The notes: generated by a model from the sequence alone, not told the origin. Shown: positions 18,045-63,513, numbered from the stretch's first letter. The stretch is DNA of 64,000 bases from an uncultured Fibrobacterota bacterium (GCA_963753345.1 CAVWBU010000019.1:86645-150644); one strand, 5' to 3'. A program made the numbers and translations.

Positions 18045-18350
18045 TTAGCAGCAGCTCCCAGAATCACCGCCGCAATCGCAGGTGCCTTTATCAGGGTCGC
18101 CCTTGGTCACAAGGCCGTTGATCATGGCGACCGCGCAACCGACCCCATTTTTTACAGACAGCGCGCCAAAGGAGCAGTTCTGAGAGCAAGCGCCGCATTC
18201 CATGCAGTTGTCAAGCGCCACGATTTGAGCACGATGATCGTGAATTTCAAAAACGCCGTGAGGACAGACTTCCACACAACGTCCGCAACCGGTGCAGTTC
18301 TCTACGGTAAGTTTCAAGGTCGATACGCCTGCTATATACGAATATTTCAT
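18045..18350 (-). CDS. hgcB: mercury-methylation ferredoxin HgcB
   Basis: 101 aa. Two CX2CX2CX3C motifs (CTGCGRCVEVCP, CMECGACSQNCS), the conserved internal GVGCAVA Cys, and a C-terminal vicinal pair ...DCGGDSGSCC. The start codon overlaps the hgcA stop (ATGA). GGAGG lies upstream. Confidence 0.85.
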   Translation of the reverse strand: MKYSYIAGVSTLKLTVENCTGCGRCVEVCPHGVFEIHDHRAQIVALDNCMECGACSQNCSFGALSVKNGVGCAVAMINGLVTKGDPDKGTCDCGGDSGSCC

Positions 18351-19337
18351 ACAATCCTCCAGACGTGAATGATTACCATGATGAGCAATAGTGCGGAAAT
18401 TCCTGCACTCGCGAGGTAGAGCGGCCAGGCGATTTTCAACTCCACTTTAACGCCCGAAGGTGACGTATAGGTGCTGCTGCCAGTGAACAAAAACGCCAGG
18501 TACGAGCTGAACGCGGGCACAGAAACCAGGTTGAATGCTGTCAAGAATGGCGTGCTTCGACAAATTGGCGACAGAAAAATGATTGCAATTGCACCAGTCA
18601 GGCCGGTAACGAATCCCTTGAGCGAAAATGACCGGCCCGGAATGAAAGGCAGCAGCAGCGGCGAAAGGATCGTGCCGGTGAAAAGAGCGGTCAGTCCCGC
18701 TATGACGAGAGGCACAACACCCGATAGCGCTTGACGGTAAATAATACCGGTGCGTGTCATGCCAAATAGAACAGCGGCAAAGAGTAAAAAGAGCCCTACT
18801 TTTTCGAATGCGGGGAATCGTCTCCATGGGAACAAGTTTTGCACGATCAACGATTGAAAACCGCACCCGCCGCATCGCAGGACTCACGGTGCAGTTATTG
18901 TCAAGAAATGCCGGTATATCCGATGCGCGCACCGGGCCGAATTTTACCGAAAAGCCGCCGCAGGCCTTTTGCAGCTTTGATGCGGAAACACCGGATGCGC
19001 TCAGTTGCGGCAGAATGAGAGTTCGGTGTGAAATTATTGATGTAAGATTGCATGCCGAAAGCTGTTTGACTATTTCATTGGTGCAAAATGTGCCTTTTCC
19101 TGCGGCGCACCACACGTTGATGCCCTTTGTGTCAAGCACAAGGATCCAGGCGTTCCTTCCTGTCAATGAACTGCGCAATATGTTGAAGCTGAGACGGTAG
19201 TTGGCAGAAACGAACACCGGATCCGATTCCTTCGGGTCTCCGAGCGCGTAGAGGCCGGGATCAACGCGGTACCGCATGCGGAAGCGGTTGCTGAGGCGGC
19301 ACATGATCGCGCCGAATTTGTCGGCAAACGAAAGCAT
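18347..19337 (-). pseudogene. hgcA: mercury-methylation corrinoid protein HgcA, interrupted by an apparent +1 frame break between the corrinoid and transmembrane domains
   Basis: Frame A (19337 downward): ...[11 protein letters not shown]...PVFVSANYRLSFNILR...LVLDTKGINVWCAAGKGTF...RRVRFSIVDRAKLVPMETI, then non-protein-like sequence. Frame B (A+1, open from 18883) carries the multi-helix membrane domain ...PAFEKVGLFLLFAAVLFG...LLPFIPGRSFSLKGF...FTGSSTYTSPSGV...IIHVWRIV. Removing one base from the G4 run (18812-18815, C4 on the coding strand) or the adjacent T5 run (18800-18804) restores LVPMETIPAFEKVGLFLLF. Confidence 0.85.
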
Positions 19338-20442
19338 GGTGGTGATCTGCTTCGCTTGCGGTTTGGAACCGCAGCCGTTGGGCTGCTATTATTTGGCATT
19401 GGCAGGATATCCTTTGCTTGAACTTGAGAGCGACATTTACAAGAGCGATCATAACCGGGACTTCGATGAGGGGGCCGATCACCGCAGCGAACGCCTCCTG
19501 CGAGGCAATGCCGAACACGCCGACAGCAACGGCAATGGCGAGCTCGAAGTTGTTGCTTGCAGCGGTGAATGAGAGGCTGACGGCCTCGTTATAGTTGATG
19601 CCCAGTCGCCGCGTGGCAAACATCGATCCGAAAAACATGATGAGGAAATATACCGCCAGGGGAATTGCTACTCTCACCACGTCAAGAGGCAACGCGACAA
19701 TGGTTTTCCCTTTGTATATGAACATGACGAGGATCGTAAACAGCAGCGCCACGAGCGCGACAGGCCCAATGCGCGGCATGAATTGTCCGGTATACCATGG
19801 CGTGCCTTTGATGGGTTCGACGATCATGCGTGTGGCGAATCCGGCGACAAACGGGATCCCAAGATAAATGCCGACGCTTATGGCCACGTCCTTCATGGAA
19901 ACATGAACTTCGCGTCCGGCAAGCCCGAAGAGCGGCGGAAGCACGGTGACGAACAGCCATGCATACAGAGCGAAAAACAAGACCTGGAAAATTGCGTTGA
20001 AGGCCACCAGCGCCGCGGCGTATTCGCTGTCGCCTTTCGCAAGGCTGTTCCACACGATCACCATGGCGATGCATCGCGCAAGGCCGATGATGATGACGCC
20101 GGTCATGAGGTGCGGCTGGTCGCGCAAAAAGATGATGGCCAGGCAGAACATCAGGATAGGCCCCACTACCCAGTTCTGGACGAGCGAAAGCGCCAGCGCT
20201 TTCTTGTCCGTAAATACGCCGCCGATCCGCCGGTAATTCACTTTGGCAAGCGGCGGATACATCATGACGATAAGGCCGATGGCGATGGGAATGGAGGTGG
20301 TGCCCACGCTCAGGCGCGACAGCGCAACGGAAGCCGAAGGAAACAGCCAGCCGATGGCGACGCCGAGCGCCATGGTACAAAAAATCCACAGCGTGAGGTA
20401 GCGGTCGAGGAAGGAGAGGCGCTTTTCGGGCACTGCCGGCAT
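19261..20442 (-). CDS. acr3: arsenite efflux transporter, ACR3 family
   Basis: Start set at the ATG at 20442 (AGAGGA upstream): [21 protein letters not shown]. Multi-[21 protein letters not shown] lies near the expected end. The ORF then reads on for ~47 more codons and overlaps the hgcA start by 77 nt. Confidence 0.85.
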
Positions 20443-20470
20443 AGTGTTCCTCTTTGTCATGCTTGCAGGA

Positions 20471-60940: not shown

Positions 60941-61296
60941 AAAGCCTCCAAATCTATTGGTTAAAAACAGGAAATTCTTCAAGAAAGCAGGTGATTGACC
61001 GACGGATTTGCCGGCTCGTGCCGAATCGCGTGCACGAAAGCACGTTTACGTTCGCGAAAAAGGTCATCGTTTACGAGACTGGTTGTATAAGGTTCTCAGG
61101 TAATAACATAAACACGTGTGGCCGGCCTTGGCGGAAAATGATAGCCGGAAGGCCATTATCCGTTACACGAACGTGTAACGGAATTTCCCGTGTACCGGAG
61201 GATTTTGAATCGTGACCGGGTCTATTCCATTATGTTATACCAATAGAATATTGAACAGGGTATTGCAGCTGTCACCAATTGAGGGAGGCAACAATC

Positions 61297-62957
61297 ATGT
61301 CCATCAAGTTAATCGCTCTGTCGAGCCTGTTGATCACGGCTTGCTCTTAATCCCAAGGCAACCCGCCGCGCAAACGATACCGCAGCCGGGCGAGAGTTTT
61401 TCCTCAATCACCGATAACGGCTGCTGGACCTGGTACGGAAACCCCAAGGCCGTTTACTATGCGGGAGTTTACAAACGCACCTATGTCGCCTGGACCTCCA
61501 ATACGACAAACCAGTACCTCGGCTATTACGATCACGACACTAAAACCACGAGCCAGGTGCTGCTGCCGTGGCATTACCCGGCCGATGATCATAACCATCC
61601 CTGCGTTATTGTAAGGCCTGACGGCCGTGTCATGACATTCCAGTCAGGTCACGACGGCACCCAGGTCAGCGAATGTATTTCCAAACAGCCTGAAGACATT
61701 TCCGCTCTTGACACGTTTACGGTAAAAATTCTGGCCTGGGCCTGCTACCCAAGCATTTGTTTCCTCAAGAATGAAGGCACCATCGGGCGTTACTACCTTT
61801 TCTTCCGCGACCAGAACCAGGAGCCCTGGTTCCGAACCAGCGACGACTGGGGAAAAACATGGGGTACCGAAATGCACTTGTACACAAACAACCCGGCCGG
61901 GTATAAGCCCTATTTCACCTGCGCTTCAAACGGCATTGACGAAATCCATATCGACATTGAGCGGGAAAACCGCGCCATCGGCGGCACGGTTCCCACCTAC
62001 TACATGAAATACAAGAACGGCTCGTTTTACCAGGCAAGCGGAAAGCTTATCGCCACCATGGCGCAATTGCCTATTGTGAACACCGTGCTCGACACCGTGA
62101 TATATCCCGGCGCCTACGGCGCGGGCGGCACGGTGTGGGACATTGCTTACGACAAAAACGACAATCCCGTTATTCTCTACGACATGTTCTTCAGCAATAA
62201 CGCGATTCACGTGTACTGGTACCTGCGGTGGACCGGAAGCTATTGGTACAAGCGGCCGCTTGTCAACAGCGGCGCCAACGATGGCGTTTCGGGGCAGCAA
62301 TTCTGCGGCGGTATGACTTTCGACCACGAAAACCCGAATGTTATTTACCTGTCGCGCCAAGCCGTGAAATCCAGCGCAACCCCGTTTAATCTTGCGGACA
62401 CCAGCTTTGCAAATTATAAAAAGATCTCTACCGCCGATTTTGTTACCGTTAACCCCAACTTCGAAATTGACAAGTGGACCACGGCCGACAACGGCCTCAC
62501 CTGGGACTCGGTGGCCATCACGCGCGGATCGGCCGCAAAGAATGTCCGTCCGTGCGTGCCGCGTGACCACATAGACGGCATGAACATCAATCTTGTCTGG
62601 CTCGACGGCACCATAACGAGCATGAGCGGCGACGGCTACAGCATGTCGGTAAGAATGTACCCCACCGACAAGGCGGTTCCCGTGATTTCGAATCCTCGAA
62701 AGAGTACGGCGGGCGAGGCGGTTAGGGTTTCGAGATCACGCATCGTATTCTCTCTTGCAAAGCCGGAGCTTTCGTCGCTCAGGATATATTCGCTCGACGG
62801 CGCGCTGGTCGCCGATTTTTCGGGCGATCTCAGGCGCATGAGCGCGGGGCAGGCGGCTTTTCCCCTGGAGCGAATTCCCGCCCGGGGAGGGGCGTACGCC
62901 GTTGTTCTTAACAACGGAGAAAGCCTGCAAAAGACGAGCATCGTTCTCACACGATGA
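61297..62957 (+). pseudogene. BNR_4-type (sialidase-fold) secreted protein with T9SS-type tail; the signal peptide is in a different frame
   Basis: GAGGGAGG precedes the ATG at 61297, giving MSIKLIALSSLLITACS followed by TAA at 61348-61350 (frame 1). The mature protein continues in frame 0 (...LLIPRQPAAQTIPQPGESFSSITDNGCWTWYGNPKAVYY...HNHPCVIVRPDGRVMTFQSGHDG...). Asp-boxes SDDWGKTW and ADNGLTW. The tail is LRIYSLDGALVADF...GAYAVVLNNGESLQKTSIVLTR. Confidence 0.7.
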
Positions 62958-63106
62958 CGGTTCGCACAGGACCTGTCTTGAAAGAAAAAATCGGTGGATA
63001 TAATCGGGATATTCCGTCGAGCAGCGACAAACGGATCATAACAACTGTTACCTGGACAAATGCGATTTTTAGCGATCAACCGGACTCGTCATACGAGGAG
63101 GCCGAA

Positions 63107-63513
63107 ATGATTGCCGGAAAAGCTGCATGTTTCTTCGGCTTTGTCTGTTGCGCCGCGGGCCTGACTAATGCCCAGGTGGTGGAAAAGCTCAGCGCGACTT
63201 TCGCGTTCCCCACCGTACTGACCTCGGCACACGGCGTTGCTGCCAATCAAAAAGCGGTTTCGTTCTTCCGCATGGCCGGGCACTCCGTTCAACAGGGGAA
63301 AATAACCTTGGAATGGAACATTGCAGGGGCGGCGACCGAAGGGACCATCTCGATCTTATTCGATATCCGGAGCACTCGTCAAGAAGGTGGCGCTTTCCGC
63401 ACGGAACGGCACAACGCACGATTGATCTCGAAAAGGCCGCAGCCGGAGTTTACTTCGCATCGATCTCTTTCGGTTCCTACCGGCAGAATCTCAAACTTGC
63501 CCTTTACCGATAA
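63107..63513 (+). pseudogene. mini-protein consisting of a signal peptide plus a T9SS-type sorting domain, with two frameshifts
   Basis: GAGGAGG precedes the ATG at 63107. MIAGKAACFFGFVCCAAGLTNAQ...GKITLEWNIAGAATEGTISILFDI (frame 2), GALVKKVALSARNGTTHD (frame 0), TIDLEKAAAGVYFASISFGSYRQNLKLALYR (frame 1, stop at 63513). Confidence 0.45.

Follow-up and report, generated by a model that had tools for sequence, protein, structure and literature searches.

Decaying bacterial genomes, such as those of Mycobacterium leprae, Sodalis and Shigella, lose their accessory and surface functions first. Frameshift artefacts have reportedly been described in long-read assemblies as well, by Watson and Warr in 2019. 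Metagenome-assembled genomes (MAGs) built from Nanopore reads only keep frameshifting indels at coverages below about 40x, and microdiversity lowers MAG quality (PMC9262707; PMC12313526). In this study, a stretch of 64,000 nucleotides of an uncultured Fibrobacterota bacterium (GCA_963753345.1, CAVWBU010000019.1:86645-150644; the whole stretch is referred to as the window) was analyzed. The window is part of a 167-kb contig (167,156 bp) of a metagenome-assembled, Chitinivibrionales-like Fibrobacterota genome. About 21 small frame-breaking indels (of 1-2 nt each) were found in seven of its genes, i.e. those encoding: (i) the arsenite efflux protein ACR3, (ii) the mercury-methylation protein HgcA, (iii) an ArsF-like protein, (iv) a beta-helix cargo protein of the type IX secretion system (T9SS), (v) a 327-aa exported protein, (vi) a BNR_4 lipoprotein and (vii) a 134-aa protein with hardly more than a T9SS C-terminal domain (CTD). 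These breaks are likely to be consensus artefacts at mixed-strain sites of a long-read-style assembly, and the pattern most probably mimics targeted gene loss and is of low biological novelty.

Distribution of the frameshifts

Stop-to-stop translation revealed that each of these genes apart from ACR3 is spread across two or three reading frames. The lesions were placed as follows:

18347..19399, minus strand: hgcA, mercury-methylation corrinoid protein; -1 at 19385/6 (codon 5) and +1 at about 18818 (codon about 195)
19261..20442, minus strand: ACR3 arsenite efflux gene; +1 (C) at 19416, 33 nt ahead of the true stop
24601..25110, minus strand: arsF-like thioredoxin-fold lipoprotein gene; 8 single-base events
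29334..30942, minus strand: parallel beta-helix (Pel9A-like) T9SS cargo gene; +1 at 30176, +1 at 30041, +2 at about 29976-29981 and -1 at about 29545
38042..39026, plus strand: exported protein gene, family not assigned, 327 aa when intact; +G at 38117, -T at 38215/6 and +G at 38623
61297..62957, plus strand: BNR_4 lipoprotein gene with a T9SS CTD; -1 at 61347, immediately behind the signal peptide (MSIKLIALSSLLITAC)
63107..63513, plus strand: CTD-only gene (signal peptide and T9SS CTD), 134 aa when repaired; +1 at about 63355-63358 and +1 at 63419

The housekeeping genes are intact. Uninterrupted, end-to-end matches to NCBIfam profiles were obtained for seven of them, and also for hgcB, the neighbour of hgcA:

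5969-7399: ahcY
7836-9155: pfk
18045..18350, minus strand: hgcB ferredoxin (HgcB_ferredoxin profile positions 1-93 of 93, 112 bits)
32979-34268: metY
34307-35251: cysK
43771-45996: MltD-like transglycosylase
47308..50295, minus strand: purL
52572-54809: priA

ThyX, TatC, SpoU, GATase (purQ-like), HU and others are likewise of full length when compared with their family profiles. With 21 lesions spread uniformly over 60 genes, about 17 genes would be expected to be affected, and seven or fewer were affected in 0 of 200,000 random trials; a uniform error rate is therefore excluded. The lesion density in the broken genes (2.9 per kb) predicts about 63 lesions in the 21.7 kb of core genes, where none was found. 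It is confirmed that the break pattern is present in the sequence and goes beyond chance. The intact genes include accessory and secreted ones, i.e. those for Kelch (529 aa), Laminin_G (363 aa), tail-collar (211 aa), NHL/LDL plus CTD (392 aa) and GH64-like plus CTD (399 aa) proteins, as well as ArsP, ArsG and hgcB.

A first-pass annotation of the window had stated that the breaks sit in accessory and secreted genes while housekeeping genes are intact. This holds for the seven broken genes and for the core genes, which are full length against their profiles, with the caveat that many accessory and secreted genes are intact too. Its argument that uniform indel error would have broken the core genes is borne out by the absence of the expected core lesions, and its warning that annotation fragments the broken genes by the deposited protein set, in which a 285-aa hgcA fragment and a 393-aa ACR3 are found. 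Every break that it named exists, and lesions in ACR3, in the hgcA N-terminus and at the arsF 5' end had been missed. The break near 18818 in hgcA was recovered, but it is not the only one, the second lesion being the 1-base deletion at 19385/6. The ArsF-like gene, described as carrying one stop and two breaks, is indeed broken, but by 8 single-base events; the TAA at 25045 is a by-product of the shifted frame, as the correct frame is lost from the insertion at 25056 to those at 25040 and 25033 and only for this reason is the triplet 25045-25047 taken as a stop. The other counts were reproduced: at least 2-3 breaks in the exported protein gene (three lesions, placed against contigs L004 and L005 described below), at least four in the beta-helix gene (four lesion places), two in the CTD-only gene (both located) and a single one right after the BNR_4 signal peptide.

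Intact alleles and strain variation

The nearest public relatives of the window are Fibrobacterota MAGs labelled Chitinivibrionales or Fibrobacteraceae. A GTDB scan with hgcA gave no same-species genome, the top match showing 74% amino-acid identity. Contigs of several origins were compared with the window. L098 (European Nucleotide Archive (ENA) ERZ25039473, contig_190766, 21.9 kb) aligns to positions 9241-29814 at 91-97% identity, and L099 is a Logan contig of ERR11748453. These two share 100% identity across 3.9 kb, and because of this ERZ25039473 and ERR11748453 apparently represent one sample; L001 comes from the former and L097 from the latter. L004 and L005, Logan contigs from two Sequence Read Archive runs, are 97.6-98.4% identical to the window overall (100% across 39.3-43.6 kb and 98.7-100% through the exported protein gene). 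L094 and L095 are Joint Genome Institute contigs, 93-96% identical to the window starting at 61358/61360. L009 is a Fibrobacter MAG and L008 is a related MAG (MFD05674, with contigs named 'contig_N').

The intact 327-aa exported protein (P0127) is encoded by both L004 and L005, and the 8.65 kb compared contain 3 gaps between the window and these near-identical, independent contigs, all of which are the lesions of this gene.

Three of the broken genes belong to an island (about 18000-28100) of lower G+C content (47-53%, with 58% for the window), which comprises hgcA-hgcB, acr3, a low-molecular-weight phosphatase (LMW-PTP) arsC, two arsR genes, ArsP, ArsF/ArsG, Trx_3, DGC, CMD and FeS proteins. 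The gene order Trx_3-arsF-arsG-hgcA-hgcB was also found in the Fibrobacter MAG L009. The C inserted at 19416 abolishes the ACR3 stop codon and extends the product to 393 aa, of which the last 43 are out of frame; the match to the NCBIfam acr3 profile (1-327) reaches residue 359 of the 414-aa open reading frame (ORF). Relatives in the 90% cluster (n=8) are 346-351 aa long, and in L098 and L099, from which the inserted C is absent, ACR3 is intact (351 aa).

The NCBIfam HgcA profile (325 positions) is split over two frames, one of which covers positions 2-189 and the other 186-321. Both the cap-helix motif NVWCAAGK (NVWCAAGKGTF) and the transmembrane domain are intact, and the gene shows the features by which HgcA is recognized, i.e. 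a corrinoid-binding domain with the N(V/I)WCA(A/G)GK cap helix, a C-terminal transmembrane domain and an adjacent hgcB. The repaired hgcA aligns without gaps with 7 homologues and the gene is intact in L098 and L099 (350 aa), while the deposited 285-aa fragment scores 265 bits against the NCBIfam HgcA cut-off of 275. The +1 at about 18818 was considered as a plain extension of a run from C3 to C4, but the relatives allow an A inserted after ACG equally well and the two are indistinguishable. In L098 and L099 hgcB encodes 101 aa, and a copy of a repeat dispersed in the window (see below) lies beside hgcB of L098. Two members of the hgcB 90% cluster (P0195 and P0199) are 359 aa long and are possibly fusions or read-throughs of HgcA and HgcB in other assemblies; one of them is encoded on the 538-kb contig of the Fibrobacteraceae MAG to which L008 belongs.

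In arsF, insertions were placed at 25097, 25093, 25081, 25056, 25040, 25033 and 24787 and a deletion at 24712 (all versus L098), with six of the insertions falling within 65 nt of the signal-peptide region. Positions 1-54 and 71-104 of the ArsF profile share one frame and the middle part is in another. The L098 gene is intact and encodes 168 aa with a signal peptide (MKFLHGMLLGMFAVSVFIAC), and the L009 orthologue confirms this reading of the lesions.

When stitched, the beta-helix protein (540 aa) aligns end to end with intact proteins of 529-531 aa, at up to 87% identity. Its CTD segment (29375-29610) is a divergent cassette, of about 75% identity within flanks that are 100% identical. Contig L006, 100% identical on either side of this segment, carries a different, in-frame CTD allele, and contig L007 terminates at 29374. 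Two haplotypes of this gene, L001 and L097, were found in what is apparently one sample. L097 is the window's own local haplotype and lacks the 30176 insertion (GGCAGT-GTTCCC, compared with GGCAGTCGTTCCC in the window). L001 matches the window at 100% identity between 32.37 and about 30.7 kb, beyond which the identity falls gradually to 73%. It carries a T3-to-T2 deletion (L001 about 1085, window 32087), by which a hexapeptide-repeat gene that is intact in the window and in L096, L002 and L003 is truncated to 219 aa. The initial 805 nt of L001 match no fetched contig.

At the BNR_4 lesion site all four contigs compared (L089, L088, L094 and L095) are in frame, and L089 contains an intact 135-aa orthologue of the CTD-only gene. 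Both L094 and L095 terminate at 62333, within BNR_4. The upstream region of L095 is unrelated to the window, and BNR_4 is a strain-variable junction.

Identity profiles at the affected loci are mosaic, with kilobases at 100% broken by blocks of 75-90%, and every affected locus is polymorphic in the sampled population. A recombination-like mosaic, with blocks of 72-83% identity inside alignments of 99-100%, was seen at 35715-35865, 36765-37064, 37814-37964 and 29375-29610 (the last being the CTD cassette of the beta-helix gene).

Character of the indels

Nonsense substitutions, larger deletions and insertion sequence (IS) insertions were not found among the lesions of the seven genes. Spontaneous +1 events are mostly run extensions. 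Among the single-base insertions of the window, 10/14 are unlike both neighbouring bases, so the spectrum is not that of natural lesions in a true pseudogene.

The lesions also have a codon phase. With frames taken from intact references, 13/18 well-placed lesions occupy codon position 3 or the place just behind it (P about 9e-4, post hoc): 9/14 insertions directly follow a third position and 4/4 unambiguous deletions remove one. In 8 cases the inserted base would be a synonymous alternative of the preceding wobble base, i.e. CTG[T], GCG[T], CAA[G], CC[A]G, ACG[A], GCC[G], CTT[A] and AGT[C]. For AGT[C] at 30176 both alleles exist in the population, L097 having the T and L001 the C, and the T deleted from GAT at 38215 is a C in L002; among the fetched contigs, alternative alleles were not seen at the remaining lesion sites. 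The wobble bias would suit strain SNPs (single-nucleotide polymorphisms), as these have a reason to prefer wobble positions and natural indels have none.

Origin of the frameshifts

We consider it likely that the broken genes are really intact and that their frameshifts were written by the assembly. The population would hold several co-existing strains. Where these are identical, as in the core genes, the read pile-up would be unanimous and the consensus clean. Where they differ, as in the horizontally acquired hgcAB-ars island, the T9SS cargo and the exported proteins, the pile-up would be heterozygous and effectively thinner, and a consensus or polishing step may render a SNP with two alleles by two bases (an insertion) or by no base at all (a deletion), which would leave 1-base frameshifts in intact genes. 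Mixed pile-ups, in a source assembly presumably based on long reads, would be the proximate cause. A long-read assembly is suggested because the 167-kb contig crosses repeats and strain-variable points where other assemblies of the same population give contigs of 0.9-8.6 kb. The contig naming of a Nanopore-only Flye + Medaka workflow (PMC12313526) matches that of the related ENA assembly and of L008; no link of the window itself to that project was found.

Several points weigh against this explanation. Heterozygosity at the lesion sites is deduced rather than observed directly in reads, and the sequencing platform of the source contig is likewise only inferred. Graph-based consensus tools normally choose one allele, so that the exact error mechanism is conjecture. 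The codon-phase test was post hoc, and under a looser definition (adjacent to a wobble base, synonymous) it loses its significance. A local divergence of 3-5% separates the window from the contigs in which hgcA, ACR3 and arsF are intact, and these contigs show intact alleles for the species, not for this strain, and L097 differs from the window at 13/1187 positions. The repaired window alleles (four variants of hgcA, as well as BNR_4, ACR3, the exported protein gene, arsF and the CTD gene) do not occur verbatim in the public protein collection, a result judged uninformative. Finally, the window and L001, both Flye-style contigs, have an extra base at 30176 and at 30041, which at face value looks like inheritance.

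An inherited origin of these common frameshifts was considered and rejected: L097, which is closer to the window here, lacks the 30176 insertion, L001 is error-bearing, and the third event near 29978 differs, the window having +2 at one place and L001 having +1 there and +1 in a G-run 10 nt downstream. That two assemblies each wrote an extra base at the same heterozygous SNP is more easily understood as an artefact than as one ancestral mutation.

The most serious alternative, though an unlikely one, is that the lesions are real and very recent strain-specific pseudogenes, with surface and secreted proteins and parts of the mercury/arsenic island inactivated while sister strains in the same habitats are intact. 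In its favour, the lesions fall in dispensable and often counter-selected gene classes (phage or predator targets, costly metal functions), the window and L001 have two insertions in common, and for hgcA, arsF, BNR_4 and the CTD gene the exact allele of the window was not found in frame in any contig. The nearest intact references for hgcA, ACR3, BNR_4 and the CTD-only gene are 3-15% divergent locally, and for these four genes a real strain-specific frameshift is possible, judged from the sequence. The presence of the 30176 insertion in the more divergent L001 and its absence from L097, which has the window haplotype, are incongruent with a single inherited event, and L001 carries an obvious error of its own (T3 to T2). 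Lesions inherited within a lineage would be reproducible in independent sequence of the same lineage; those of the exported protein gene are absent from L004 and L005, and that at 30176 is absent from L097.

Indel counts and selection bear on the same question. Neutral bacterial DNA accumulates about one indel for every ten substitutions. The ratios for hgcA (2 indels, 63 substitutions) and ACR3 (1 and 39) are compatible with natural mutation, but the respective numbers are 8 and 9 in arsF and 3 and 10 in the exported protein gene (6 synonymous and 4 nonsynonymous changes versus L004), far above the neutral expectation of roughly 1:10. The pN/pS value of hgcA (0.34) is higher than those of ACR3 (0.10) and hgcB (0.06), as would suit a decaying gene, and for arsF it is 0.44, from 9 substitutions only. 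The derived amino-acid changes of hgcA, polarised with outgroups, are nevertheless symmetric between the two lineages (10 in the window and 9 in L098). Neither a dN/dS moving towards 1 nor an excess of amino-acid change was found, and the broken genes are still under purifying selection. The absence of nonsense substitutions, large deletions and IS insertions, the mostly non-duplicative insertions and the codon-third-position bias, unexpected for natural indels, also speak against real pseudogenes.

The first-pass annotation had left two alternatives, and the consensus mosaic of haplotypes is favoured by the polymorphic loci, by intact alleles in contigs of 96-100% nucleotide identity to the window and by the wobble-position lesions, while true pseudogenes are unsupported by selection, by the indel-to-substitution ratio and by the spectrum. 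Its cue that several breaks avoid homopolymers is correct, but it cannot be taken as a sign of real mutation, as natural mutation produces non-duplicative insertions of one base even less typically. Were the frameshifts real, a soil or peat Fibrobacterota strain would be shedding its mercury-methylation and arsenic island (hgcA, acr3, arsF) and several T9SS cargo proteins via bursts of small indels. We regard this as improbable; non-duplicative insertions at wobble positions would call for a mutational process out of the ordinary.

The other explanations are, even jointly, quite improbable. Ordinary long-read basecalling errors, in homopolymers or at methylation motifs, that fell in these genes by chance are a very unlikely source. 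Run-length changes make up about 4 of the about 21 lesions (e.g. G2 to G3 at 38623 and G3 to G2 at 24712, with A4 to A5 also at 25120), and GATTCC/GGAATC occurs within 15 nt of 4/13 lesions (uncorrected P = 2e-4), with CCWGG and GATC near a few others. Most lesions, however, lie outside runs of three or more bases, and long runs elsewhere agree perfectly with independent contigs. Such errors would also spread over the core genes, which is excluded. The methylation-motif explanation (GATTCC, GANTC, CCWGG, GATC) was rejected, as correction for the about 2,700 k-mers tested removes the significance of the enrichment and GATTCC occurs at 47 further sites that are lesion-free.

Phase-variable contingency loci or programmed ribosomal frameshift sites, with the genes expressed despite their breaks, are hardly credible: surface and secreted proteins are the usual phase-variation class and the net shift is a multiple of 3 both in arsF and in the beta-helix gene, but up to 8 sites per gene were found instead of one site with a long repeat, no lesion has a simple-sequence tract of at least 7 bases (local runs are of 5 bases or fewer), stop codons are met a few codons after each shift, and no slippery heptamer was seen in the local sequences around 13 lesions, for which no dedicated scan was made.

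Consequences

If the breaks are artefacts of a mixed-strain consensus, the mercury-methylation gene pair of this uncultured Fibrobacterota is probably functional, as far as can be judged from its sequence, although the public record contains only a 285-aa fragment; hgcA surveys using full-length hidden Markov model cut-offs would miss or mis-score this genome. Moreover, pseudogene counts for accessory genes in long-read MAGs could be inflated exactly where strains differ, mimicking adaptive loss. Third-position indels, inserted bases that spell a synonymous allele and indels as numerous as substitutions would then together make an error flag for which no reads are needed. If, on the other hand, the lesions were real, they would represent a natural case of very fast, gene-class-targeted loss of metal and surface functions at the strain level, with intact sister strains co-occurring in the same samples.

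Other features of the window

A dispersed intergenic repeat family (about 100-150 bp, 77-87% identity) is present at 5671-5814, 17645-17990, 43594-43718, 46296-46390, 50627-50764 and 52462-52509. It matches no Rfam family in an Rfam scan, and a tRNA scan of the window found none. A single ORF on the plus strand (57797-58645) combines a TatA/B-like N-terminus (residues 12-40) with a complete 5-formyltetrahydrofolate cyclo-ligase domain (residues 77-259). The two parts are not separated by a stop, and the ORF is either a natural fusion or the result of one more lost stop. The GH64-like secreted protein (59741-60940, minus strand; 399 aa) has a T9SS CTD, while its 90%-cluster mate P0187 stops at 319 aa, just ahead of the CTD; this domain may be variably present or the P0187 contig may be broken.

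Comparison with known systems

The repaired hgcA of the window resembles known hgcAB pairs in having a corrinoid domain with NVWCAAGK and a transmembrane domain, followed by hgcB, and in adjoining arsenic-resistance genes, as in the Fibrobacter MAG L009. It differs in being split as deposited, with a fragment scoring under the HgcA cut-off.

As in the decaying genomes of M. leprae, Sodalis and Shigella, there are several frameshifts per gene, accessory and surface genes are the first to be affected and housekeeping genes are spared. However, those genomes add nonsense codons, larger deletions, IS elements and a dN/dS near 1, none of which was found in the window genes.

The window is also similar to a mosaic consensus of co-assembled strains: haplotype switches occur within the contig, other assemblies break at the same positions, and blocks of 75-83% identity lie inside flanks of about 100%. 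Such a consensus is usually described as chimerism at the level of SNPs, whereas here it seems to produce indels. We know of no documented case in which a heterozygous SNP written as two bases or none left a recognisable codon-phase signature.

Long-read frameshift artefacts, as detected with the IDEEL test (Sereika et al. 2022, PMC9262707), resemble the lesions of the window in that single-base indels fragment gene calls in otherwise good contigs; they become worse with low coverage and microdiversity and are removed by short-read or strain-aware polishing. The classic case is a genome-wide error in homopolymer run length. In contrast, the lesions of the window are mostly non-duplicative, lie at codon third positions and occur in strain-variable genes only, while kilobases of its core are identical to independent contigs.

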